64,000 nucleotides of DNA, taken from assembly GCF_041146345.1 (NCBI RefSeq), contig NW_027191413.1, positions 310,001 to 374,000 on the forward strand, given 5' to 3'. Made by a program: the position numbers and the translations under genes. The stretch comes from Neodothiora populina. Lineage: Eukaryota. The notes beneath the pieces are model-generated. The model made no database searches and was not told the DNA's origin. It saw nothing but the letters and a program-made list of their open reading frames with translations. Within the stretch, counting starts at the first letter, position 1. Every line of letters starts with the position of its first letter. Shown piece after piece: positions 31,604-50,137 of the stretch.

Positions 31604-33531
31604 ATGCATATCTCACAGAAGCTCTCCCAGACGGCGGAGCAGAAGAAGCCTACGTACTCGTTTGAGTTCTTCCCGCCAAAGACCGCACAGGGTGTGCAGA
31701 ATCTCTATGATCGCATGGACCGCATGCACAGCTTCGGCCCTACCTTCATTGATATCACATGGGGAGCTGGTGGTCGTCACGCCTCGTTGACCTGCGAGAT
31801 GGTCAAGGTCGCCCAATCCGTCCACGGTCTCGAAACGTGCATGCACTTGACTTGCACTGATATGCCCAGGAGCAAGATCGACGATGCTCTGAAGGAGGCT
31901 TACAACGCTGGTTGCACAAACATTCTCGCCCTGAGAGGCGACCCCCCCCGTGAAAAGGAAAAGTGGGAGGCAACTACGGGTGGCTTCAGATATGCAAAGG
32001 ATCTCGTCAAATACATCAAGGAGCAGTACGGCGATCACTTCGACATTGGTGTGGCTGGATACCCCGAAGGCTGCGACGATCAGGATGACCCGGTCTTGCT
32101 CATTGAGCACTTGAAAGAGAAGGTGGACTTGGGCGGAACCTTCATTGTGACACAGATGTTCTACAATGCCGATATCTTCCTCGACTGGGTGAAGAAGGTG
32201 CGCGCTGCTGGGATCACTGTGCCTATTGTTCCAGGTATCATGCCAATTCACACCCACGCCGCTTTTATTAGAAGAGCAAACTGGACCAAGTGCGACGTCC
32301 CACAAGCCTGGTACGACGCTCTGGACCCTATCAAGAACGATGATGCTGCAGTCAGAGAGGTTGGCAAAGGTCTCATCGCGGATATGTGTCGCAAACTGCT
32401 CGACAACGGCATCTACCACCTTCACTTCTACACCATGAACTTGGCTCAATCCACCCGCATGGTGCTAGAAGAGCTTGAAATCACCCCCTCTCAACAAGAT
32501 CCATTGGAAAAGCCTCTGCCTTGGAGACCTTCACTCGGCCTGGGCCGTCGTGAGGAGAACGTCCGACCCATCTTCTGGCGCAACAGAAACAGATCATACA
32601 TTGCCCGCACTCAGGACTGGGACGAATTTCCCAATGGTCGTTGGGGTGACAGTCGATCTCCTGCATACGGTGAGCTCGATACATATGGCATCGGTCTGAA
32701 GGGTACAAATGAGCAGAACCGCAAGCTTTGGGGCGAGCCCACTTGTCTTCGCGATGTGGCCAATCTTTTCATGAGCTACATGAAGGGTGAAGTCGAGTGC
32801 TTGCCTTGGAGCGAAGCACCCATTTCTCAGGAAGCCGATCCTCTTCGTGATGACCTCGTCAACCTCAATTCCAGAGGTCTCCTGACCATCAACTCTCAGC
32901 CTCCCGTTGACGGTGCAAAGTCTTCTGACCCAGTGCTTGGATGGGGTCCCAAGAACGGCTATGTGTACCAGAAGGCCTACCTAGAGGTCTTCGTATCCCC
33001 TGAGCTGATCGCCGAACTCATCACCCGCATGGAGCGCGAGCCGGACGTTACTTATTTCGCCGTCAACTTGTCTGGTGATTTAAAGACAAACACCGCTCCT
33101 GACAGCGGTCCGAATGCTGTCACCTGGGGTGTCTTCCCAGGAAAGGAAATCGTCCAGCCAACTATCGTCGAGACTGTCTCTTTCCTTGCCTGGAAGGACG
33201 AGTTCTACCGTCTTGGACAAGACTGGAGCGCCTGTTACGATGCCACCAGCCCGAGCAGGTACATTCTCAACGAGATGATGCAGACGTGGTATCTTGTGAA
33301 CATCGGTAAGCTGTGATCCCTTACCGGAGATTTTGGAATGTACTTTGATATGTAAGACTTTGACTGACATTGCTCCTAGTCCACAACGATTTCCGCCACG
33401 AGAGAGGTATTTTCAACCTCCTCCAGGGCCTGGAGGTGCCTGATCTCGACCGTAAGATTTCATTTCCCGAGAACGCAGTCGCCAATGCCGCGAGCAATGG
33501 CGAGAAAGACGACAGCGCCGCGGCTCCCTAA
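31604..33531 (+). CDS. MET13: Methylenetetrahydrofolate reductase (catalytic + SAM-regulatory domain); intron 33306-33379
   Basis: SFEFFPPKT, ITWGAGG, MHLTCT, NILALRGDPP, VAGYPEG, VTQMFY, HFYTMN, WDEFPNGRWGDSRSP, NAVTWGVFPG; last exon VHNDF. Confidence 0.94.
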
Positions 33532-34596
33532 GTAAATGGCACCAAAGCCGACATCGATGGTAGTGCCGCAATGCCAAACGGTACACACAACACTGGTGCA
33601 GGACCTAGTGTTCAGTTCAAGGATTAGATTCCAGACTCTGAATGCTCCGCTGCTTTACACGACCACTCGCATGGGATAGCAGCGAGGGTTCAATGATGAG
33701 ACAAATAGAAAAAGAGAAAAGAAAGAAAGAAGGTGGAACAACTCGACACAGAGTGCTTCTTCAACAAGAAAGCAAAACCAGGGATAGAGAAAAGGCGAAG
33801 AAGAAAGGAAGTTTTATCCTCTCCCTTTGATCTTCATTTTCACGACTGCAGACGAAAGCATTTTCACAGGCGCAAATCACAAACGAGATGATCAAAAGGT
33901 TCTACCCAAAAGCGAGAGATACCCCATTCAACCGGGCTTTTGACAGGAAAAAAGGAAGCGGATTTTTTTTTTGTTATTATTGGTTTTTTCTCTTCTTCTT
34001 AATCTACTGTTTCTAGGTCTTCTGACCTCAAGTCTTTCGTTTTCATATTTGAATGTCTTGCTCATTTTACCTTTGTACCATGACAAGATGTGAGAATTGC
34101 TCGAAACGGGGGCGTTTGTTGAATAGACAGTTATTACAAACGATTTTGTTTCTTGGTTCAGAGTATGTATCGATGTTGCATACCTGGCTGTCTGATAGTA
34201 GATACGCGTCAGTGGCTGGCATGCGCATCATCATGTCTGTATACCAAGCGTCCCTAACATATCTTTGAATGTTCTGCAATTTCTGCAATGACACATCAAT
34301 CACTTCACGGGCTTCTAGGACATTGTTGTATCGGAAAGATGGATCGAGTCCTATCGAGTGACTATGCTATCTCTACTAAAGGTACAGGACGTGCTCATCT
34401 TCAATCCTCTGATAAACACATCCACCGCATCGCCAGCCAAATCGAATTTTTTCGTCAGGTCGTAATGATATCATAACAAAGAAAAGAAAGACTCATAGCA
34501 GCCGAGCAACTCGCTTCACAATCACACTTGCACGCATCGCACGCTGCTGCTGCTGCGAGCACCACGCATGTCGATACGTGTATAGCTGCTCATCGC

Positions 34597-34993
34597 TCAA
34601 CGGAAACAGTTCAATTTGCCAAGAGAGAAGCGGAAAGGCGCGCGTCTGACGCCGTTCTTGTCGACGATGACACCGCCGCCTGCAGAGAGCGGATCAGTAT
34701 AAAGCGCTCGCTTATCAGACGAAGAGAGAGATGGACGTACCCGCGTGCTTGCCGCCCCAGCCTTTGGTCCACATGAGACCCATATTGTCGTCTGGTTCTG
34801 GATATACCTTTGGTTCTAGAGCAAGATATTGGCCCTGGTCGTTGACGAGAGTTGTTGACGATCGGAGAGAATAGATCGCGGTTGGATTAGGTCGTGAGGG
34901 AGCTGTGGGGGTTTGCTTCTTTTTGCTGTTGTTGTTGTTCTTGCTGCGGACGTGGTAGAGACTATTTGCTTTCGCTAGCTGGGATTGGTACAT
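34597..34993 (-). CDS. Small hypothetical protein, 111 aa; exons 34993-34741, 34679-34597; ends GKLNCFR
   Basis: GTACGT donor, CTGAT branch and CAG acceptor join the 92-aa ORF to an open second exon GGGVIVDKNGVRRAPFRFSLGKLNCFR; TATA-like elements upstream. Confidence 0.6.
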
Positions 34994-36244
34994 TAGTGTT
35001 TTGGTTCGGTCGTCGTGTTATGGGCTGGGGTGGTGTTGTGTAGTGTTTTGTGAACAGGTATTATATGGAGATGGATACAAATGTTCCATTGATAGTGCAG
35101 TGGGCTAATGATAATGCAGAATACATACCCCTATGTGGTTGATATATAGCTCGTTTGAGGCAGTGTAATGTCGTCAAGAAATCCTTCGAGGTGCCGCTTG
35201 AGCCGTCAAGTAGAGTTCTTTTGTTGATCAAGATGTGGTAGTCACACAAACGTCAAAGGGTATATAGGTTGTACACAGAAGGACTCAAGGTCAAGAAAAA
35301 GCAACCAGGACGTGCGTTCTTATATTGTATTGTTCTCTACCTATTCCTCTCTGTTCTAGAAAAGTAAAATACCAACTACATCACTGACATACCCTACACG
35401 AGGAGGCGCGCGCGCAGCAGCAACAGCATGGCGCATAAGAGGCGCAGCCTACAACTTCCAACCTGTTTTCCCCCAAGATCAGGGAAGTCACGACCCTTGG
35501 CTGATGTCGTTTGCGAAAAGTTCCCTGGTGTCGTCAGTGATCATCTCGACGCCAAGGCCAAGGAGGTCGGGGGTGGTGGGGGATGACACTCGGTATGTGT
35601 TGTATGCGCCGGGCTACGTATATACCTGCCCTTGCTTTTTCTGAGAACTTCACTTTGTATTTCATACATGATGCCTTACATGTGAGATTGCTATAATTCA
35701 AAATGGCGGCAGTATTCGGTGGCACTCTTCTCGGCGTGCTGTTCAAGAAATGATATCATCTACTCCGTGCGCCTACCTGTAGTATTGCACTCGGGTGCAC
35801 GACTGCTCTTCTGTATCGACAGTCGTGTTCGATAGGATGCAGAGATTTGATTCTCGAGGCGAACTAGGCGAGGTAAATTGTGCAGCCCTGCGACATTATC
35901 ATCATGTCCCAGTGCAGGACCGGTCCATGCCCTGGAAATCGCATTGTAGCAGCAACCCGCCGAGCTCTCCTGGTTCCAAGTTGGATATATTTATCCTGTC
36001 TGGAATGAGTGTCAAAGAACGCTGCTTCAAGACAACTCGCACAGATGCAAGGATAGTGTCACGCAAATCATCAGACCCAAGCTTCCAATATAGGAACCGG
36101 CAACACTCAGCACTTGCCATCTTCGCACATGGACCGGCCGTCTATAAAGATCCTACCAAGATTCGACAATGCTTTGTGGGTTGCAGTTCCACCAAAATCG
36201 AGTCCGCGAAAGAGATATATTTGGTCACATATCAACGATATTTC

Positions 36245-36363
36245 ACGTACGACCACAGGCAGCTGAGAACTGGGCATCCCGTCTGCTCTGCCAGACATAA
36301 GCAGTTGACCGGCAGATTAGTACTACGGTGGGTGACCACGTGGGAATCCCTGCTGTTGTACGT
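36245..36363 (+). rRNA. 5S rRNA gene (dispersed copy)
   Basis: 119 nt ACGTACGACCACAGG...GGGCATCCCGTCTGCTCTGCC...ATTAGTACTACGGTGGGTGACCACGTGGGAATCCCTGCTGTTGTACGT; termini pair (ACGTACGAC/GTTGTACGT); oligo-T Pol III terminator follows; TATA-like element about 30 nt upstream. Confidence 0.95.
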
Positions 36364-38228
36364 TTTGTGTTTTTTGATGTCCACTAACACATAGTCCATT
36401 TGAAGTTACTAATCAGTCTGATGAACATGGTCTAGTCGTTTCGAAAGTGGTCTTGAGTGTTCGATAAAATTATTGGATGGACTTGTCACCGGTGGAACTA
36501 GCCACTATTTTTCATCATACATGCCCCAAGCGAGACGGGTATATATTTCTATCCAACGGTGTTATAGGTAGCCTGGCTTGGTATCAGGCATCGCTGCGAT
36601 AGTTCCTCTCGATAAGAAATTGGAATACCACCGAAGGTGAAGAATATACAGTGGTAGGCAGAGGAAGCCGAGCGGCGTGATCGTCTGTCAAGTGTTGTAC
36701 TAGAGCCCATCCTTCATCAAGAGATAGAGGGGGATTCGCCGGCGCACTACAGCGAATCATAACTTGGTCGCAAAGTAGGTTCTTTAGTGCCACCCCTCGA
36801 GCGAGCGTGATCCGAGTTCTCTACCATGGTGCTAATGTAGCCATGACCATGACCATCGCCGATAAATATCGATCCATTTTTGTAGTTTGACCACAACAAT
36901 CGATCACGGTGGTCTTGCCATGATGCTGATGGGAAACAATCAAAACATACGGGCGAGGATAAATTGAAGCGCCATTTCCTGCTATTCGCATTTTCCCTCG
37001 ATTGATCAATGCACCGAGGATGAGCCGTAGACCAGGTTAGGACTAGCGCCTTGCTAGCGCAGAAGTCAGAGTCGTCGCCTCCGTCGCCGTGATTGGTCCA
37101 GTGCGAAACTAGCGTTTGAGGCAGACAAGGGGGGTGGAGCTGCATTTCGCCACACGCCAACTCTGCGTGCGTTGCAGGTCCACAGGTCTTTGCTCCCGTC
37201 TCGCTCGACTCTGTTCGTCCACTTTCGCACCTGCCATTGCGTGCATTTTTGTCGGCCTGCCAGCTGAGATGTGTTTGTGCTCTGGGAGGTTTCTTTTTTT
37301 CCCCTTAGAAGAACATGAAGCTGTCAAGCACTCTGCCAGCTCCAGTCCGGCAAAGCGAGATACTTGATACTCTCACTCTCCCTTATCCACCCTGACGGTT
37401 TTTTGGTTCCTTTGACATGGTTTAGGCACAAGCACAAGCACAAGGGTCCAGCAACGGACGCCGCTATGCTATGCAGCGAGCCTGGCATGTCGAGCTTGTG
37501 CCCTCACAACCTAACCTAAGGTACCCTACCTAACATTGCCTTTGCAATTCGATGCCTTGCGTTCACGTGACCACCTTCTGCCTTGGCAAAAGGGCGTGTC
37601 AGTCTTTGGGTGTGGTGGATCAAGTCGTTCTCTCTCTCTTGCTCTTGATCTTGATTCAACCTTGACACCCACTACCCACTGACTTGTCGCCTTTATTTCG
37701 AAGTCGAATCTCTTGTTCGTCTGTGTCGCCTGCATCAATCGACACTCTTGCGCTTACTGTCGTCGCCACTACACACCTTTTCATCCGACCACGACCAGAC
37801 TTGCTGCACTCTTCCCTCTGCCGTCTGCTCCACCCCCTCCCCCCTTCTTGACGCTTTTCGTCCTTGAGCCACAACACAGACAACCTACATCTGTACTCGA
37901 TCTCCTGTGACTCGTGTTGATTTTCTAGTCTTCGATTCGACCGGTCTACAAATCCAGAGAGACTCGTGTTTCCTTCGTCGATAGATCCTCTGTGTTTCTC
38001 TCGACCCAAGCACGCTCTCCTCCCAAAGCTCGCGTCTTCAGGCGAGGACATAGGCGAGACTCGTGAACATTCGCGCCGTGACAGTTGGCTGCATGGAGTA
38101 GATTATTCCCAGCGGATCACCTATCGTGCGCAGGATCACCGTCATGCGTCACAGACACAGCAGACTCTTCACGACGTAACTCACCATCGGAGTTCAAACA
38201 GACCTTTTCATGAAGAAATCGACAGGCC

Positions 38229-41200
38229 ATGACAGAACCTCCTTTCTCTCTCGGTACATTTGCCGCTCGACAACAAGCCTCACTGCCTGGCTTGCTGGCT
38301 CCACCTGTCCGTTATGCACCCAGACTCACTGAACCACCCGGCTTGGACGGCACCGTCGAGGAAGAAGACGACGGAGAAATCATCTGCATCTGTGCCTACA
38401 ACTGGGACGATGGCTACACCATCCAATGCGAGACGTGCAACAAATGGAACCACATGGAATGTTACTACCCTAATGAATCAGATCGACCCGGCCCGGACCA
38501 GACACACTACTGCGTCGACTGTCAGCCTCGAGAAGTCGATGCTCGTCGGGCGAGTGCCTTGCAAAGAGAAAAGTACAACGAACAGCAACGAGAAAACGGA
38601 AACAAGAGACCAGTCTCCAAGGCTGGGCGGAAAAAGGTCAAGGACTCGTCCCTCAACGGCCCCACTGTCAACGGATGGTCGGCGGACAAACACGCCCACT
38701 TGCATGGGCGAGAACGCAAGAGTGCCAGCCCTCGCGACCTCCCACCTCCCGCAAAGAAGACCAAGACAACACATCGCTCGTCGACAGCCTTGACCAATGG
38801 TGGCCCTGGACGCAAACGCAACGGCTCGACGCTGACGCACCAACGCAGTCCGTCAAAGTCTCCTGCCGTCGATGCCAGGTACGGGCCTGTCATGCCCCTG
38901 TGCTCACAGGAGTTGTTACATCTCGACGAGTCACTCGCCGCTCATGTCAACACGGACACAAACATCTGGAACAGTATCGAGCTTACGAACTCGTTGTCTG
39001 AGTGGCTGCAAGATCCCGAAGCTGTCGAAAGAGATTGCCAGCAGAAGCAGATCGACGTCTTCAAGCGATGGGACGGTCCCTTTGAGAACATGCCCGGTAA
39101 GCCCGAGGTATCGATGCAAAGGAAAATCGACACCAAGTTCTCCGGCACTGGTCAACCTGTGATATACCCTTGCATCACCGGCGAAGAGGAGATCACGCAG
39201 CACACCTTCATCGGAGAGCTCTTGGGCCACGTAGGCTTCAAGAGCGAGTACATGGACAACCCCGAGGGTCGCTGGGAGTCCTTGCGACACTGCGAGCCTT
39301 TCGTCTTCTTCCATCCCAAGCTGCCCATCTTCATCGATGCCCGCCACGAGGGTTCGCTATACCGCTACGTACGTCGCAGCTGTCGACCCAACGTTGAGAT
39401 GCAAACCATCATCACAGAAGGCACGACGTATCATTTCTGCTTCATGGCGACAAAAGACATCATGCCAGGTGAAGAAATCACCATCGGCTGGGAGTTCGAC
39501 GACAGGATCAGGGCCATGTACGCTCAACGCACTCACATGAGTGACCAGGCCTGGGCGCCTGACGTTCGGGAAAAGATTGCTGCATGGGTATCCAATGTAC
39601 TCGCCAACTGCGGACCTTGCGCCTGCTCGGGTCAAGGCTGTCCCATGGCCTTCTTCGATCGCCGTGGTCAGGCCATACCCATTCCTCCCGAGCCTGCGCC
39701 AATCAAAGCACCAAAACGCAAGAGGAAGACGCCCCACATATCTCCCGAGGACAGTGGCCGCGCCAGCAATCATGCCAGCCGTTCTGGAAGTGAGAGTGGA
39801 GCGAGGAAAGCAGAACAACACGACGACGATCTGACCGACAGCCGCTCTGTCTCAGGCTCATACCAAGGTTCCGCGAGCCGCGACATCACTCCGGGTACCC
39901 TCACCGCTGCCGTCATGCCTGAACTATCAGAACGCGAACGAAAGAAGCTCATGCGTGAAGAAGAGATGTTCAAGAAACAGGAGGAAGAGAAAGGCAAGCA
40001 GCGAAAAAAGCGGAACAGTGGTGGATCAAATCTGAACACACCCAGCGCTGCCACTTCTGTACGTCACGATGCTTGTCTCAACCACCAATCACTCTTGCTA
40101 ATGACATCTTCACAGAGGCAACTGGGTCAACCCACCACTTCCAAATACGCCGACGCTGCAACCTCTTCTCGGAACTCCACCCATGTCTCACGGCAGTCTG
40201 GAGGTAGACGCGGGGCTAAGCAAGGGCAGTCTTCATCGAGAGGGGTCTCAAAGTCTTCATCAAAGCCCTTGCCGAAACCTGTCTACGTTGACAGTGCCAT
40301 ACAATGCGATATGGATCTTGATGAAGCCGCCGCACGACCCCTCGTCACTCCACCAAAGCGGAAGCAATATATCTCCGTTACACAACGGCTCCTCCGCCGA
40401 TGTGCGTCCAACAACTTCAAGCGAAAAGCTGATCCTGAGGAGGATGAACCCAAACGCAAACCGCCACCTCCACCAAAGCATGACATGATGGATGTTGATC
40501 GGGACGAGGGTCCAAACCACAAAGCTGATACTGCCGGTGTACTTCCTCTTTCACCCATATCTGACAAGGTCAAGGACGTGGACGCTGATGTGCCTCTTCG
40601 AGGGGATGTGTCGAAATCAAAGGTTGTCATGTCGCCAGCATTCGGTGATGATGACACAGTCATGCAAGACGCAGACCCTGACGAGGATATCAAGGATGTG
40701 GGACCATCAACACAGAAACCTTCGTCTGTGATCAAGGAAGATCACTCGAGTCCGTCAGACAAGCAATCAAATCCGGCCTCGAATCCTCCAATGGATCCAC
40801 CCCCGCCACCATGGCCCGTGAGTTCCCCGATCGAATCACCAAAGGCAATAGAGAAGACATCCGAGATCTCGGGGCCTCATCAACATGGACACATTGTCAC
40901 AGCGCCTGTTGCACCCATGTTGTCGTCAGTGTCAAGTACGGATTCTTCTCAGCCTGGTGGCTCGGCTGCGAAGTCCCCCTCGGTCACAACGCAAGGCTTG
41001 ACGCCGACTTCCATATTTCCGCCAGCTGTCAGTGCTTCGCTGAACCCGAGTCCGATCGCCCGCAAGAAAATGAGTCTGAGCGATTATACCAAGCGCTCCA
41101 AGGCACAGCGTCCAGAGTCGTCAGCCGGCGCTTCCCATCGAGAAAGCAGCCCAGCAACTAGTGTGGTCTCGACTGAAATGGCGCCGCGGGACAATATATT

Positions 41201-41447
41201 GCATGGGAGTGCTATCAGCGAAAGCCCTGCTCCCGAGTCAATTCCACCTTCATCCGCGGAGGGAAGAAAAATGGAATCGGCAGTTGATGCGAGAGAAGAG
41301 CGTCTCGACGAAGGGTCCACGTCGCACATGTCGGCCACTTTCGGCGACAATGGACTACCCACTGTCACCATGTCTCTTCCTGAAGCTACTGTGCAAGCGA
41401 CGACAACTTCATCCACTATACCCAGCACCACTGGTGCACCGGTGTGA
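38229..41447 (+). CDS. SET3: Set3/UpSET/MLL5-like PHD + pseudo-catalytic SET domain protein; probable in-frame 57-nt intron 40059-40115
   Basis: PHD ICIC...DDGYTIQCETCNKWNHMEC...CVDC; SET with RRSCRPN in place of NHSC and GEEITIGW; C-terminal KKMSLSDY. Confidence 0.88.
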   Translation: MTEPPFSLGTFAARQQASLPGLLAPPVRYAPRLTEPPGLDGTVEEEDDGEIICICAYNWDDGYTIQCETCNKWNHMECYYPNESDRPGPDQTHYCVDCQPREVDARRASALQREKYNEQQRENGNKRPVSKAGRKKVKDSSLNGPTVNGWSADKHAHLHGRERKSASPRDLPPPAKKTKTTHRSSTALTNGGPGRKRNGSTLTHQRSPSKSPAVDARYGPVMPLCSQELLHLDESLAAHVNTDTNIWNSIELTNSLSEWLQDPEAVERDCQQKQIDVFKRWDGPFENMPGKPEVSMQRKIDTKFSGTGQPVIYPCITGEEEITQHTFIGELLGHVGFKSEYMDNPEGRWESLRHCEPFVFFHPKLPIFIDARHEGSLYRYVRRSCRPNVEMQTIITEGTTYHFCFMATKDIMPGEEITIGWEFDDRIRAMYAQRTHMSDQAWAPDVREKIAAWVSNVLANCGPCACSGQGCPMAFFDRRGQAIPIPPEPAPIKAPKRKRKTPHISPEDSGRASNHASRSGSESGARKAEQHDDDLTDSRSVSGSYQGSASRDITPGTLTAAVMPELSERERKKLMREEEMFKKQEEEKGKQRKKRNSGGSNLNTPSAATSVRHDACLNHQSLLLMTSSQRQLGQPTTSKYADAATSSRNSTHVSRQSGGRRGAKQGQSSSRGVSKSSSKPLPKPVYVDSAIQCDMDLDEAAARPLVTPPKRKQYISVTQRLLRRCASNNFKRKADPEEDEPKRKPPPPPKHDMMDVDRDEGPNHKADTAGVLPLSPISDKVKDVDADVPLRGDVSKSKVVMSPAFGDDDTVMQDADPDEDIKDVGPSTQKPSSVIKEDHSSPSDKQSNPASNPPMDPPPPPWPVSSPIESPKAIEKTSEISGPHQHGHIVTAPVAPMLSSVSSTDSSQPGGSAAKSPSVTTQGLTPTSIFPPAVSASLNPSPIARKKMSLSDYTKRSKAQRPESSAGASHRESSPATSVVSTEMAPRDNILHGSAISESPAPESIPPSSAEGRKMESAVDAREERLDEGSTSHMSATFGDNGLPTVTMSLPEATVQATTTSSTIPSTTGAPV

Positions 41448-42320
41448 CGACAGCTTTGATCTGTCACTTCTTTGCCGGCACAATGTCGTCGTTTTCGTCT
41501 TCACTTTCTTCTTCGTGTAAGCATAGTATTAGCAGTCTTCATTTTTTTCTCCCAAAGAAGACGGGATGGAAGATTTGGAATGTTTTCATGACACTCTCGC
41601 CTCTCAATTACCTTTTTATGTAATGGGTACTGTATTTTCCCTCTTACCACACCTTCCCGTCCTTCTCCCAAGCGTCTACGAGCTAAAGATTTGATGGTCA
41701 TGGATGGTTTCTGTATGATTGAGTAGTGTAGACATGATGGGATATATTCTTCTTTCAGCTATGCTGGGACAATGGTCTTTTTTCTTCGCTGAGTGAGACG
41801 AATTTTCCGTAGTCTCTTTCGAAGGCAATAATGTCCTTTCAACAATTGCCACTTGAACACCTCTTTGTGTTTTGATCGTTGCTGCTTAAGTGTAGCACTA
41901 AAAAGGTGTCAAGGAGCCCCATAACGCAGTCACGGAGCATTAGGGACTGTGTGAGAACACTGATTCCAACAGTAAAGAGCAGATTTCTTTACGCTGCTTA
42001 CCCGCTTAAGTGGTGGAGTGGGCTTCCGGTGATGATAAGTCGTGTGTAAACACTGTCTGCCTTGTCTAGTATTCCTCTTCAGACACTTACTGTATGTTGC
42101 ATCGCATAGCATACTGCGCAGCCACTCAGTATGCAGCTGTGGTGAGTTTCTCAGCTTACATGAAGAACAAGGCAGAGATGAATGGCTATAATCAATGGGT
42201 CATCTGCCTCTACAATACCTTGGTATAGCGATGGAGTCGAGTCGGCCAATGCAGTGAATCTCTCTGATCGCATCGAGACCAGGTCTGGCTATTCTACCTT
42301 AACATTTACCCTGTCCCCGA

Positions 42321-42352
42321 TGCGGCTGCGGCTGCGGCTGCGGCTGCGGCTG
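42321..42352. repeat. (TGCGGC)5 hexamer repeat
   Basis: Read directly. Confidence 0.9.
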
Positions 42353-43214
42353 CCGGCTACGGCGTATTCGAGACGTAAAGTGAAATCCGGAGAAAAGTCG
42401 AACAGATCACCTCACACCACCAGACAAATCCATTTTTTTACCATTGCTTTCCTCAAACCACCGTGCTGTATCGTACATGTGACTCTCGCTCTTGGTCAGT
42501 GTCGATTGCTTATTCTAGACCTTTTTGATGTCCCATCCGGACAGGGTTTCTCGAGAGCTATGGCGAATAACGAAGCGAATATGAGTTTATTTTGTCGTGA
42601 GGTACGCGGCCCCGGCGGTGTTTGTTGATTTGAGCAGTCCGGTGCATTTATTCATCCATTTGTTCAATATTATGGAATCCTTGATGAGCCTGCTTCGCGT
42701 GCGGATACACGAGATCTGTTCGGCATCGACATCTGCATCGATCGGATCACGGGTCTATAATTCGTGCATGTGCCGCCTTATTTACTTACTGTTTCACTCT
42801 TCCCGTACGTACGCACACACGTGCGGAGTATAAGGTAGTCGTTGTATCTGGTGACAGGTCATCTGTTCAGGACAAATCAATAGTAGGTAGTGCTGATGCC
42901 GTCGCGCCCGCGGTCAGGTCCTATCTCTACAGGATAATAGTGTGTACGAGTCCCCCAGGTCATTAGTGGCTTCTCCGATTTGTTCTCGGTGAGGGTGGAC
43001 TGGGGGTCTCGTCGTTGCAGTATATCAATCTGGTAGGGGCCCGTCTATATGGTTTCGCTTCTTTTTTTCCTCCTGCTCTCTTACTCTGAATATACTTACG
43101 CTTCCTCGCTTGCGGTTGCTTATTGTTATTTATCTTGAACTCTATACACTTTGAATTGAGCTATTGACCACCTTACACACACATATAATCCAACAAGGCA
43201 CGTTGTATACTACT

Positions 43215-43928
43215 ATGGGAAGCTCTTGGCCAAACGAATTAGACCTCGAACTCTACATGAACTATCCCGACCTGCGAGATTCATTCACTACTTTGCCGAC
43301 CGAGGCTTATTACACTGAGCAAGCCCGACTACGTAAACAAAAGATCGTCGCTGCGAACCGGGCTCCAAGACCTCCATACTCGCGCTCGCAGCAGCTTCTG
43401 CGCTCTCAACTATCCTCATCGCTGCCACCAGCCTCGATAGCGAAGACCCAGAGAGAGCGATCATTGACTTCTTCCTCGACGCCTAGAAGTGGACGTCCAA
43501 CGACAGCAGCGAAACACGTTACATTTGCACCATATCCTGCCCCGCCATCGACAGCGATCAGAAGGGTCAAGTCGCTGGTAGATCTGGACTTGTACTTCCA
43601 CTGTAAAGACCTGCGCAACGACATCATAGAAGAAACAGCAGAAGAGATTGCCTCGAAGCCTACTCGACATGGCAAAAGCTTCTCGCAAGCAGAGAGAAGA
43701 CAAGAAGAAGAAGACGACGACGCAGAGCAAGACCGCGGACAGATGATCCGAGAAGCGATGCTCTTCGCCAGCACATCGCTCTCGCCGGGCTTGGTCCGCG
43801 CAGTCGATAGGCAGACAAACGTCATGACAGAGGCTCGAAGACAAAGGCAGGAACTAGTGACAGAGGAGAATCAATATCTGTCGCTTCATCCTGCTATCGC
43901 TCGTGCGTTGGCCAAAGCGAGACTGTAA
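43215..43928 (+). CDS. Hypothetical protein (237 aa) with two copies of DLxLYxxxxDLRxx
   Basis: Long open frame from ATG 43215 after a pyrimidine-rich leader; internal peptide duplication; no family recognised. Confidence 0.65.
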   Translation: MGSSWPNELDLELYMNYPDLRDSFTTLPTEAYYTEQARLRKQKIVAANRAPRPPYSRSQQLLRSQLSSSLPPASIAKTQRERSLTSSSTPRSGRPTTAAKHVTFAPYPAPPSTAIRRVKSLVDLDLYFHCKDLRNDIIEETAEEIASKPTRHGKSFSQAERRQEEEDDDAEQDRGQMIREAMLFASTSLSPGLVRAVDRQTNVMTEARRQRQELVTEENQYLSLHPAIARALAKARL

Positions 43929-44706
43929 AAAAGAAAAGTTCCCGATTTCTCCTGGACCTATTTTTTCTTCCCTTACTGCCGGATTTCGATTCCCGCGATG
44001 ACGATGATAATGAGGGGCTTCATATGCGAGTTTTCCATACAGGAGGTCAAGTCTGAGGGGAGCACCAAACAAGGTTCTCGTTACTGCCCTTCATCAGGGC
44101 GTAAAGGAAGCGTAGGCTCGAGATTGAAAGCGTGAGCAAAACACTACTTCTTGAAGTCTTGGAGTACAAAAGACTGACTTTCAAACGAACAGGACTCTAG
44201 CAGACATCCTATGACCCCAGGCATAAAGCATATAGTAGCCTACCTGCTTGGTCTTTGTCTAATCAGGCCACACTTCTGTTCCTTATTTCACTTGGACAGA
44301 ACCAAGACGGAGCGACCTACATTCGGCATCAGAACGAGATCTACCCATGACATCACGCACAGGTACTGAGAGAAGATCAGATCACTAGAAGATGTTCCGC
44401 TGTCAAGGACTCTTCTCTCTCAATTGACTGGTCAATCTCTCAAATACGTGTCGGAAGAGCTATCGTCTCAACTGATGGCGAGCAAGTTTAGTGTATACCT
44501 ACAGGGTGCCAGCATCCAGCTGACGTGGGTGCAAGGTGTGGCAAGCGGTGGGTTCGACAAAGTAATGCTCATCAGAATAAGAAGCACAGCCTGGGGCAGG
44601 CGAATAGACAAGCTGAAGGTCAGTAGTGGCTGTGGGACTTCTGATTTAACGTCTATGATGCATTACCAGAGTCTCAAGTCAAATCTGGTTGGATTACGGT
44701 ACTAAA

Positions 44707-44766
44707 AGGGCTATGATACACGATGGTAGCTACTCTAGAGGGCTATAATTACACAACGGTAGCTAC
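44707..44766. repeat. Imperfect direct repeat AGGGCTAT(G/AA)..TACAC.A.GGTAGCTAC x2
   Basis: Units at 44707-44733 and 44739-44766. Confidence 0.8.
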
Positions 44767-45129
44767 ATTATCCATCTTGTAGCTTTTCCATTACGAGACA
44801 GCTTGTCCGCCTAGACTCGTTCGCGTAGCGCTTAAACCTTTGAAGTCGAGACACTATTGACAAGCTTAGTCGGATTCGTACGTCTCCGAAATCGAGACTT
44901 CATTATAGCCTGACCCAGTTTCGAATGTTTTCGAGACTAAGGCTTCTCTGGTGAACCCGACCAAGCCCTATGAATGCGTTCGAGGAAACAGCCAATTCGT
45001 CCAGAAAGTATCCGGTCCAAAGCTGGAAGATTGGTGAAACTTCAAACACCTGTGAGTTCTCGCGCAGTCGTCGATTGAGCTCCCCCTACGAAATGGAAGG
45101 CGCAGCCACGATGGGGCACACTCACTCCC

Positions 45130-46778
45130 TCAGCCAATCCTGCGTCTCTTCTGGTCCTGTCTGCCACCCTTGCGCGACCTCTTGAGCGCCGGTTCCCCAT
45201 AGCTAGATCCAGCCTCCGACTCTCCATCGTCATGATCCATCATACCGTCCTCATCTGAGTCTTCATCATCGCTTTCAAACCGCTTGTCTTCCTCGATAGC
45301 CGTGGGAAGAACAATCGTATCTGCATCGCTGGAAGCATCGTCGGACTCCTCCTCGGCGCCTTCGTCATCGGCGAACATGTAGCGCTCTAATTCCGAGAGG
45401 CTGGATTCGTCTTCAGACTCGTCTTGAGTCGTGTCTGTCATGTCTGTGTCTGAGTCGATGTTTTCAGTGTCGACAATTGAGCGGGGTGATGTATGAGCAG
45501 AGGTGGTATCGGTTTCTGTTGGTCTCGTGACGGGCTGGCTGATGATTTCTATACGATCGCTGAGTCTGCGGGCGAATACGTATTCGACTATTTCTTGTCA
45601 GCAAGCTCCAGGCTCATATCACGAGAGATGTATCTGTAAAACTCACGAGCAGGAGCATCATGACGACTCTCCCTCAAAGCCTCAATTTCCTCAGGGGTAA
45701 AAGTCCGCCACGCAAAGAACTCTATACCATGATGATGGGGCCCCTTTGAAGAGTTCGCGTGGGCGCCGCTGATGTGTCTGTTGCATCCTCCTAGACCCCC
45801 GAAGAAGACTGGAGTCATGCCAGGTCTGGAGGCGTTGATGCCGCAGTAGGGGCATCTGAGCTCTACGTATACCCCGTCTGCCCTTCGGAGTATATGCGGC
45901 GGGAGTTTCTTTCCTGGCCTTGGAGTGCTTGTGGACTCAGTCGAGATGGAATCCTGAGGTGTGTTTTCACGGCTAGATGGGGAGCTACTGCCTGTCTGAC
46001 TGCTCTGTGCAGGAGCAGTTGCGAAGGGGGTTTTGCTGATTGGATTTGAGGATGCAGGCAGTGAGAAAAGGCGGCGCACTTCGTTTATGGATACTTCTCT
46101 GACTTTACAGAGTTGGAGAGTGCGTATCAAAGTGACCTCGTTCGGATAATTGTGCGACTCAAGTAAGTGAGCACGCATACCCATGACACCTTGAGCGTAC
46201 AGATGGCTCTTTGGACTGAAGTTTCCTTTGCAGAGATAGCATCGGATCTCGCTGAAGCCAGAGCCATCCAGGACGACGCTTGGTGCTGATGGCAGAAAGT
46301 AGTAAGGTGCTTTGGACTGTATAGCCTTGATACAGGCCAAGAGATCGTATTGTATTGCATCGTGCGGGAGGACATGAGCAGCAATACCATCACGCTGGTC
46401 GTCGCGATCAGAAACGGAAGATGACTGAGCAACTTTTTCAGTGGTAAAATCCGCAGAGGTATCACCATCTGGCAATTCTCCTCGGTCGATAGCCTAGATC
46501 ATGCTTTAGTAGAGGCACTAACAAAAATAAAAATGTGAAGCGAAAAGTGAACTTACAAGACGTTGTTGATGTATCTCATCAAGATTCTTCTCGTACTGCT
46601 CTTCCTCAGCAACAAGCTCCTTCTCAGCAACCTCAAAGACAATCTTAGCATGATCAAAGTTCTTGCGCTTCTGGGCGAGAGAATCCTGTAGTCCTTTTTG
46701 TTGCATGATCAAAGCAATGCGCGCGGCAACAATGCGTTCTTCGCGCTCGGTTTCGAGCGCATGCTCACTTTCGACCAT
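45130..46778 (-). CDS. Hypothetical protein A (~508 aa): N-terminal coiled coil, two long-spacer C2H2 modules, acidic tail and basic NLS-like end; exons 46778-46557, 46493-45647, 45587-45130
   Basis: Three separate ORF-track fragments join in frame through two canonical introns (GTAAGT..TAG, GTGAGT..CTGAC..TAG). Confidence 0.75.
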
Positions 46779-47504
46779 TTTGATGGGATCAGAAATGAAG
46801 AATGAGTTCAGGAGTGATTAAAAGGCGATGCTTTGCTGTGTGTGGTAGTGCCAATCGCGTAATTTGATCTTCTTGGACCATGTGGGATGAATGATGGAGC
46901 AAGTGATGGTAGAGAGGTCTGACCTTGTTGAGACCACATTACGCGCACTTACACCTGAGCACGCCCCTAGAGCTACATGACATGTACCAACAACAAGACT
47001 AGGTCGATGCAAACAGGAAAGCTTAGACGAAATGGGTTACATACATTAATCATGCTAGGGTGAACATCTCATCTAAAATCCCCTACCAAAAACAGTACCA
47101 TGTTCATGATTGAGATGTGGGACTTTTCCAGCTAAGACTACAGCAACACCTTATACATTAGCAAGATAACAGCATCCGGAGTGATTCAGAGCACCAAAAG
47201 TCAAGCGTTCTGGCTTCAAATATAAGAGAGACAAAAGGACTTTCTGAACGAAGGCAGCAAGATGTAAGGTTGTCCGGTTGTTAGACAATACCTTGCTCCC
47301 GGTACACCGAAATCCCAGACTATACATGCTTGTTTCCTGTCTATAACCCATTATAAGCCCTGAGAGGTATAAGTGAGCAGTATCAACCTTTGGCATCAAA
47401 AGGTTCAAGTAATTGCTGGCGAAATGCATGAGTCCATATGTGCGAAAGTGATGCTAGCTTTGGTCGAGAACCTGGTCAGTACTCCGAGCAGTTGAGCTAG
47501 AAGT

Positions 47505-48604
47505 CTACGAAGGACCTGAGCTGCTACGTCCGAGGGGTAGGCCGCCAAAGTCTCCACTAGCGAAAGTGATGTGATCAATGGGATCATCCATATCATGGTC
47601 CTCCTTGAAATCTTCGATGTTCTGGACTTCCTCATCAGCAACAATTCTGTGGAGGCAATGCTCTACGAGCATGTCTTCAGTTTCGTGGACGATGCCATGG
47701 TCCCGCTTTAGGTGCTGCTTGAAACCCCTAATCCCTTTCGCCAGTGACTCAGTAGATCTGAAAGTGTTGCTACCACATTCTGAACATCTAAGTTCAACCC
47801 ATACACCATCGGGCCTAAGCACTATGCTTGGTGCTTTACGGACAAATTGTCCGATTTTGTAGCCACGTATTTCAGCCTGGCACTTGGAAGTTGTGCTGAG
47901 ATGTTGTTGGGTCACCTCGATATCGCTGGCGTCGAGCTCATCCGGTACAGTGCGTCTGACTTTGGGAGGGCGATGGCTGCTAGTTCTTGAAAGTGTCCTC
48001 TTCGTGCATTGTGGGGTCTGAAGAGAGCGCTCCAATTTAGGATGAGTAGGTGCCCTCCTGAGCACCAGCGGGTCGTCATCGTCGTCGCTATCTGCCATCA
48101 TGTTTATGCTGACTGGACCATTATCGTTCTGGCTGATGAACAAAGGTGACTCGTCATGATCGTGACGGGCTTGTGCTTCATCACGAATGTGCGAATTGTC
48201 GTTGCAGTTGCCGAAGCAGCCGTCTCGATTGCGCTCCGCTGCAATTGAGCTCACTACAGCTTGCAAGGCATCCTTACACTCAAGCAATGCTGCTTCCTCC
48301 TTATCAGCGAGTGCTGTATGATAAACTCTTATGAGATCCTGTATAGAGGCGGTTAGTTGGCTGCCAGTGAGATTACAGCGAAGCATGTAGCCTGGCCAAG
48401 GAAAACCCTCACAAGGCGTAGCTTCTTGATACTGGACAGCTTGCGCATGGCTGCGCCTTCAATGTTGTCGTAGTCATCCTTTGCCTGCGCGAGGGCACGT
48501 TGTGCCTCTGCTAAGCGACTTTTGGCATTGTTTAATGGGTCAGAAGCCTCGATCTCCATCTTCAACAAATCAGCTAGCGCCTCGATGTACATATGATCTT
48601 CCAT
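47505..48604 (-). CDS. Hypothetical protein B (~341 aa), paralogue of A: coiled coil + one long-spacer C2H2 module; exons 48604-48413, 48338-47505
   Basis: GTGAGG..CTAAC..CAG intron joins two ORFs in frame; RPDGVWVELRCSECG...H....H module shared with A. Start codon uncertain. Confidence 0.72.
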
Positions 48605-49666: not shown

Positions 49667-50137
49667 TTAACAGTAGATGTTGGCGGAAGTTTCGTTGACC
49701 CACTGTCCGTCGATGGCAGGGACGAAGTCGTCTGGGGTGAGGTAGGTTCCGAACATGACACAACCGACTGAAAGTACGCCTCCTGTAGTGCCATAATAAC
49801 CCTTGGGAGTAGGTGCATTGTTGGCGAAGACGACACTCTTGCAGCCAGTGACAGAATTGCATTGCTCTAGGCAGCCCTCGTAACGTTTGTTGTAAGTGTA
49901 GAAGTCAGGCTGCTCGAGGTAGTAAGAGTAAACAGTCTGGTTCATGACGGCATCCGAGGGCTTCCAGCTGTTGACGGTGCCGTTGCCAGGGTGGTCTGAT
50001 GCATGTGGAAGAGCATTGATCAGAGTGCAATTTGCAGGAATCGGAGAGAAGGCAGGTCCGCCAGCTCTAGGCTTGAGGGGCGAAGCCACTGCGAGAAGCG
50101 GCAGGACGGCAGATGTGAGGAGAATAGAGAACAGCAT
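49667..50137 (-). CDS. Small secreted Cys-containing protein, 156 aa (PAN/apple-like Cys spacing)
   Basis: Signal peptide MLFSILLTSAVLPLLAVA; CLEQC....GCKSV...C; six Cys; TATAAA upstream near 50221. Confidence 0.8.
   Translation of the reverse strand: MLFSILLTSAVLPLLAVASPLKPRAGGPAFSPIPANCTLINALPHASDHPGNGTVNSWKPSDAVMNQTVYSYYLEQPDFYTYNKRYEGCLEQCNSVTGCKSVVFANNAPTPKGYYGTTGGVLSVGCVMFGTYLTPDDFVPAIDGQWVNETSANIYC

Follow-up and report, generated by a model that had tools for sequence, protein, structure and literature searches.

A 64,000-nt stretch of the Neodothiora populina genome (contig NW_027191413.1, positions 310,001 to 374,000; hereafter, the window) carries in the interval 45130..48604 two minus-strand genes, A and B, whose products contain a zinc-finger-like module with an unusually long spacer. 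The gene A product (508 aa) has two such modules and the gene B product (341 aa) has one. A and B are paralogues and real genes of a real protein family, and profile–profile comparison makes it very probable that their module is homologous to the AHC1-type finger (PF25909). They are homologues of the AHC1-like proteins, and neither strict PF25909 members nor AHC1 orthologues. An earlier note on this DNA had proposed an undescribed system here; what was found is a variant of a known finger type, and a new two-gene system is not shown.

The A/B module and the AHC1-type finger

The three modules, A1 (46029..46298), A2 (45654..45899) and B (47568..47849), are located on the minus strand as previously written, their Cys2–His1 spacers being 20, 22 and 20 residues long, and a pattern derived from them has 3 matches in the six frames of the window. 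They score 60.4, 55.4 and 80.3 bits, respectively, with the family profile. The consensus and the long spacer proposed earlier hold, while the domain itself is larger than was then proposed: it spans ca. 90 aa and comprises a hairpin, the CxxC motif, a long loop and the H-x4-H helix, beyond which come another helix that ends with a fifth Cys, a strand and a final helix. The conserved columns in an alignment of 260 modules are P-x-[IV]-V, D-G-x-W-V-E-L-x-C-x2-C-x2-N, a variable loop, G-x2-G-[FLM]-x2-H-x4-H, the fifth Cys, an Arg and the last helix.

A single Zn would be held by the CxxC and H-x4-H residues. Cys1 is present in 259/259 modules, Cys2 in 260/260, His1 in 257/260 and His2 in 258/260; this conservation is partly built in, since the family profile was trained on modules pre-filtered for these four ligands. 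The filter did not extend to the fifth Cys (222/258 modules), the Arg (189/254), the Asn three residues after Cys2 (255/260) or the Gly residues, which occupy helix position −1 in 235/260 modules and position +3 in 195/259. In the 181 of 256 modules that match the pattern, the Cys2–His1 spacer varies from 17 to 33 residues; its mode is 20. The otherwise conserved fifth Cys is replaced in the A2 lineage (A2 and the second modules of relatives P0005 and P0011) and is therefore not required in every copy.

The homology is carried by profile–profile alignment. Using hhalign, the family was matched to the AHC1 finger at 96.8–96.9% (E 2e-10 to 3e-10 for a single comparison) over 69–70 columns that extend from the hairpin to the last helix. 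When the four ligand columns were masked, a match of 79% (E 1.6e-5) was retained; starting from full-length alignments, 89% (E 2.4e-6) was obtained, and a control with 47 classical fingers of the host gave 3.8%. The family profile recognized 120/120 AHC1-like proteins at 10.0–24.4 bits, the best of 40 control open reading frames (ORFs) reaching 7.4.

The two domains share the hairpin before the CxxC, the G-[FLM]-x-x-H-x4-H helix, a following helix with a conserved Cys (invariant in 34 rows of the AHC1 alignment), an R-x-L strand, the last helix and an upstream coil. They differ in the spacer, which is 13 residues long in AHC1, so that the loop of the family is about seven residues longer. The invariant Q-G-F-L-N-H-C-R-I run of AHC1 has been lost in the family, where only the G and the following hydrophobic residue are kept; the Asn three residues after Cys2 is specific to the family, and there are one to four modules per protein rather than one.

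AlphaFold2 prediction for module B from 40 sequences (mean predicted local distance difference test score, pLDDT, of 88.1) gave the order strand, strand, CxxC, helix, helix, strand, helix. In the model of the host AHC1 finger (pLDDT 70), the elements follow one another in the same way, the strand ahead of the last helix being two residues long. No sequence match in the PDB was found under E 0.5, and Foldseek returned no match at E<=0.001. Structure search with VIA-align retrieved no solved chain at Z 5 (the highest Z was 3.0 with module B and 3.3 with the AHC1 finger), which is not proof of a new fold. The weak structural neighbours of module B are C2H2 fingers: 2lvh (Z 2.9, root-mean-square deviation 3.1, 44 residues aligned) and 5vmu (Z 2.6, 3.7, 52 aligned); solved BED structures are not among the matches listed. 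The AHC1-type finger thus emerges as a larger, roughly 70–90-aa domain without a close solved structure in these searches.

Several points weigh against the homology. In the reverse direction the match is weak: with the AHC1 profile, 149 family proteins scored a median of 2.2 bits, 2 of them above 15, while module B scored 13.9 bits and the other window modules 7.0 and −1.5; this profile is narrow, having been built from the 120 closest, Dothideomycete-type matches. The hhalign control covers classical C2H2 fingers, and the AHC1 side of the comparison covers filamentous-fungal proteins. The trees are unrooted and do not fix the direction of descent; since the known range of the family is the narrower one, we infer that the family originated by duplication from an AHC1-like gene.

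The host AHC1-like gene was located by a motif, PF25909 having first surfaced as a weak atlas lead (<0.9, a lead only). It lies on the same contig at 621.7–623.9 kb (L010:436-2601, plus strand), ca. 265 kb from the A/B pair, and encodes in one open frame a 715-aa protein with a coil and one PF25909 finger. Since the host has this separate gene, A and B are not AHC1 orthologues. PF25909 is annotated in 120/120 listed homologues of the host protein (of 1584), several of which are named ADA HAT complex component 1; in contrast, neither of the two family relatives that have precomputed domain annotation (2/2) carries any domain. Across three species, identity to the host is 73–79% for the AHC1 finger and 28–44% for the best module pairs, with one family member compared per species, so that closer members may exist. 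The AHC1-like gene is conserved, whereas the family is multi-copy and fast-diverging. Such a combination points to chromatin regulation that is lineage-specific, and gives a way of approaching the role of the Ahc1 finger. One survey reports Ahc1 for S. cerevisiae alone of the species that it covered (PMC9676040), whereas PF25909 AHC1-like proteins are common in Dothideomycetes (1584 matches, 120 listed).

Among other Cys/His domains, the closest to be weighed is BED (PF02892), defined by the signature Cx2CxnHx3-5[H/C] and by a Trp and a Phe towards the N terminus, both of them highly conserved (PMC3365051). The modules have this signature with the Cx2C-xn-H-x4-H spacing, and zf-BED is the commonest Pfam match of the family (10/40 members at E<=0.1), its cut-off being passed by 7/150 relatives, a further point that weighs against AHC1 ancestry. 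Together with the acidic tail and the basic end of A that resembles a nuclear localization signal (NLS), this agrees with a reading in which A and B are sequence-specific DNA-binding transcription factors whose coil dimerizes, whose tandem BED-like modules read DNA and whose acidic tail activates. Such a reading is also compatible with AHC1 ancestry, given that the Ahc1 finger has been called a putative DNA-binding domain (PMC7786029). We nevertheless regard it as rather unlikely. The window modules stay below the zf-BED cut-off (best 16.2 vs. 20.6 bits), and all BED matches, weak to marginal as they are, begin at profile positions 10–18 of 44, omitting the first 9–17. Strong aromatic conservation appears confined to one column, five residues before Cys1 (W 164, Y 47 and F 20 of 259); the column sixteen before Cys1 is mixed (C 60, Y 57, F 47 and W 9 of 242). 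In addition, the family module has a C-terminal helix–strand–helix extension and no transposase context.

Classical C2H2 fingers (PF00096) share with the modules two Cys, two His and a hydrophobic residue three before His1. They differ in having a spacer of 12 residues, as opposed to 20–22 in the window, and short inter-finger linkers that the family lacks; PF00096 has no match on the window proteins, and the hhalign control stayed at 3.8%, as given above. Helix positions −1 and +3 read bases in classical C2H2 fingers, and in the family these positions are mostly Gly. The net charge of the modules is near neutral (median +1; −6 for module B). Gly at both positions and the near-neutral median charge favour contact with proteins or chromatin rather than base reading of the canonical kind, and also argue against the BED-like reading.

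Rua1_C (PF14616) is likewise a fungal long-spacer Cys/His domain. It appeared as an atlas lead (0.80–0.81, a lead only) and passed the cut-off in 1/150 relatives; the Rua1_C profile has no match on the window proteins, and the host Rua1_C exon scored 4.4 bits with the family profile, a partial comparison because introns split that gene.

Range and architecture of the family

The profile search suggested in the earlier note was run with HMMER using the three modules against 1.84 billion representatives (clusters at 50% identity) and retrieved 386 proteins at E<=0.001, 117 of them at E<=1e-10. The module is present in 149 of the 150 best of these 386 matches; P0093, a classical multi-C2H2/Mab-21 protein, was removed from the family. 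One module was counted in 47 proteins, two in 85, three in 18 and four in 2 (n = 152: the 149 listed relatives, P0271 and the module-bearing frames of A and B, many of these entries being exon fragments).

An organism name was available for 16 of the 32 clusters looked up, and all of these proteins are annotated as hypothetical, uncharacterised or unnamed. The 13 species are Rachicladosporium sp., Zasmidium cellare, Elasticomyces elasticus, Cladosporium fusiforme, Microthyrium microscopicum, Lophium mytilinum (four genes), Lineolata rhizophorae, Glonium stellatum, Mytilinidion resinicola, Septoria linicola, Cercospora beticola and two Pseudocercospora species. By a taxonomy check, N. populina belongs to Dothideales and three of the named species are Dothideomycetes of three further orders; the remaining ones we take to be Dothideomycetes as well. 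This class is rich in plant-associated and stress-tolerant species.

No further family copy was found in the host genome, these searches giving lower bounds: 13 of 16 host pattern matches score <=9.8 bits, and two weak own-genome matches (L003 and L007) were rejected as noise within unrelated genes. A word-index search with exon 2 of A yielded 0/1412 candidates and a wider search with the family alignment 2/8000; in a metagenome scan, module B alone gave 0/217 stretches and the family alignment 2/12. The Pfam scan of the window proteins produced no match over the cut-off on A or B, which is explained by the absence of the PF25909 model from the scanned set. Of the proposal that A and B represent a lineage-restricted, unrecognised family, the lack of a Pfam match and the probable nuclear location stand; the 386 clusters and the homology to the AHC1 finger take it beyond that description. 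No description of the family was found in titles and abstract openings, in a library short of most subscription journals, and the family is apparently undescribed; it represents a variant of a known finger type rather than a system of a new kind. For several hundred divergent proteins now called "hypothetical", this provides an ancestry that can be tested and a domain definition that can be used.

An N-terminal coil is a family-wide feature. Using a home-made heptad score compared with 30 shuffles, the coil before the first module beats all shuffles in 15/15 scorable annotated relatives, the sixteenth starting within the module; B and the host AHC1-like protein also beat all shuffles. Domains typical of chromatin readers are fused to family modules in a few cases (P0045, P0035, P0124 and P0141). 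In one relative, from Lophium mytilinum, a chromodomain is over the cut-off at 33.3 bits; a PHD in one relative is just under it (23.4 bits); and a C1/PHD-like Cys-rich domain is found in P0124 (under the cut-off) and, similar by eye, in P0141.

Possible role of the A and B products

The acidic tail and NLS-like end that were pointed out earlier in A are indeed present (D+E make up 29% of the last 160 aa, with KRSR and KRRR at the terminus), and the products of A and B are probably nuclear. The family appears to be built like the fungal AHC1-like proteins, with an N-terminal coil, one to four ca. 90-aa zinc modules and a disordered, often acidic tail. The Ahc1 of yeast belongs specifically to the ADA acetyltransferase complex, to which it is tethered by Ahc2 (PMC3159981; PMC6468242), the partners that co-purify through Ahc2 being Gcn5, Ada2, Ada3 and Sgf29 (PMC3159981). 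Its zinc finger is putative (PMC3159981; PMC7786029) and is described as a putative DNA-binding domain only (PMC7786029; PMC9127870). Cases are known in which a single C2H2 domain with additional strands mediates contacts between proteins (PMC12774644).

We consider it somewhat probable that A and B are nuclear chromatin or transcription adaptors or regulators. The coil would serve for self-docking or oligomerization or for docking on a chromatin complex, the modules would engage the surface of a protein or of chromatin non-canonically, and the acidic tail of A would recruit cofactors. Several observations count against such a role. For every member, it is read from sequence and predicted models; the coil of A (heptad score 1.24 vs. 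a shuffle maximum of 1.30) is not above shuffles, so that of the coiled-coil first exons proposed for both genes only that of B beats the 30 shuffles. Fusions to chromatin-reader domains are few, and errors of gene calling may account for them. Since the survey mentioned above reports Ahc1 for S. cerevisiae alone (PMC9676040), the ADA link of the filamentous-fungal AHC1-like proteins is itself only putative.

That A and B are subunits of a Gcn5/ADA-type complex seems to us quite improbable. Still more speculative is a birth-and-death scenario, which we would put forward as a long shot: a Dothideomycete-wide family derived from an AHC1-like chromatin subunit, whose coil would dock a chromatin-modifying complex and whose modules, diverging and variable in number, would direct that complex to targets particular to a lineage, for example repeats, accessory regions or foreign proteins. 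An analogy is offered by the KRAB- or ZAD-type repertoires of fast-evolving zinc fingers.

Gene models and the tandem locus

Gene A opens with an exon (46557..46778) that encodes 74 aa of predicted helical coil and ends at a phase-0 intron (46494..46556; 63 nt, GTAAGT..TAG, with in-frame stops). Exon 2 (45647..46493) carries modules A1 and A2 and is followed by a phase-1 intron (45588..45646; 59 nt, GTGAGT..GCTGAC..TAG) and by exon 3 (45130..45587), which encodes the acidic low-complexity tail, the NLS-like basic end (45133-45183) and the stop. Exon 1 of gene B (48413..48604; 64 aa) encodes a predicted coil that extends into exon 2; a 74-nt phase-0 intron (48339..48412; GTGAGG..ACTAAC..CAG) separates it from exon 2 (47505..48338), which contains the coil end, a linker, module B and the stop. 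All of these features are on the minus strand; the frames of both genes are open, and the three introns, each GT..AG, are predicted from sequence. One sequencing run, probably of DNA, gave six short pieces that span no intron, and it bears neither way on expression.

The duplication proposed earlier for A and B is borne out: A1 and A2 align to module B by BLASTP (E 2e-8 and 3e-8), and both first exons end with R-L at a phase-0 intron. The first exons themselves gave no BLASTP alignment at E<=100, and no likeness between A and B was found at the DNA level; the duplication must therefore be old, and the kinship of the coil exons follows from intron position and register.

A metagenome locus, L046, has the gene order of the window: iron-containing alcohol dehydrogenase (Fe-ADH; 73% identical), a PAN-like secreted gene (55%), two family genes and MTHFR (82%). 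The synteny check suggested earlier thus finds the Fe-ADH side and two family genes kept, with a difference of ca. 12 kb in the MTHFR-to-A stretch. Both L046 family genes open with a coil exon that closes at a phase-0 intron of the same position and phase as intron 1 of B, and the coil exons of A, B and the two L046 genes share the ending [LM]-x-x-I-x5 before the intron. This shared exon end and intron support the A and B gene models and the kinship of their coil exons.

The earlier note had suggested that A and B could heterodimerize, and one may extend this to a dedicated coil heterodimer maintained as an adjacent two-gene system. A and B do share the coil exon and orientation, and in L046, too, two family genes lie beside the PAN-like and Fe-ADH genes. 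By raw identity, which runs partly contrary to the trees, L046 gene 1 is closer to B (46%) than to the gene next to it (36%), and for two A-like proteins the longest contig listed has a length of 40,025 bp, so that they may share a contig. Yet the two L046 modules are united with each other in trees (FastTree 0.994, 270 rows; ultrafast bootstrap 96, 19 rows) and not with A and B, which argues for local turnover and against a fixed A+B heterodimer. Each L046 gene has one module, as opposed to two in A, and gene 2 is 28–31% identical to the A modules; copy number also varies, with at least four family genes in Lophium mytilinum. An obligatory A+B heterodimer finds no positive support beyond adjacency, and we hold it, like the maintained pair, to be decidedly improbable. 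The simplest reading is that of a long-lived tandem locus that would have undergone repeated duplication or conversion. In the trees, A1, A2 and B each fall with separate relatives, at modest support values: A1 groups with the first modules of P0004 and P0005, and A2 with the second modules of P0005, P0011 and P0004.

Fast divergence and variable copy number, along with the occurrence of BED fingers in transposases (PMC3365051), could also be expected of a transposon-derived or decaying sequence without host function. This explanation is largely refuted and, in our view, very unlikely: no transposase family is found among the Pfam matches of the 150 relatives, there are no long or close repeats around the genes and no composition resembling repeat-induced point mutation, no further host copy was found, the frames are intact, and the intron and its position are conserved in the relative.

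P0005 and P0272 both list the longest contig of 40,025 bp, and P0030 and P0056 both list one of 2,308,982 bp, which hints at linked paralogues. Between MTHFR and A, ca. 12 kb of the window (33313-45130, compared with L046:12305-13408) has no match in L046, where MTHFR directly follows the second family gene. An open frame of 257 codons at 43155-43928 (plus strand, first ATG at 43215) has no Pfam match over the cut-off, lacks a counterpart anywhere in the 20-kb L046 locus, and is possibly an orphan gene. The window stretch that is absent from L046 also holds a PHD-SET gene (38214-41447). The PAN-like gene of the window (49667-50137, minus strand) encodes a secreted-looking protein of 156 aa with a PAN_4 (PAN/Apple) match at E 0.007, under the cut-off.

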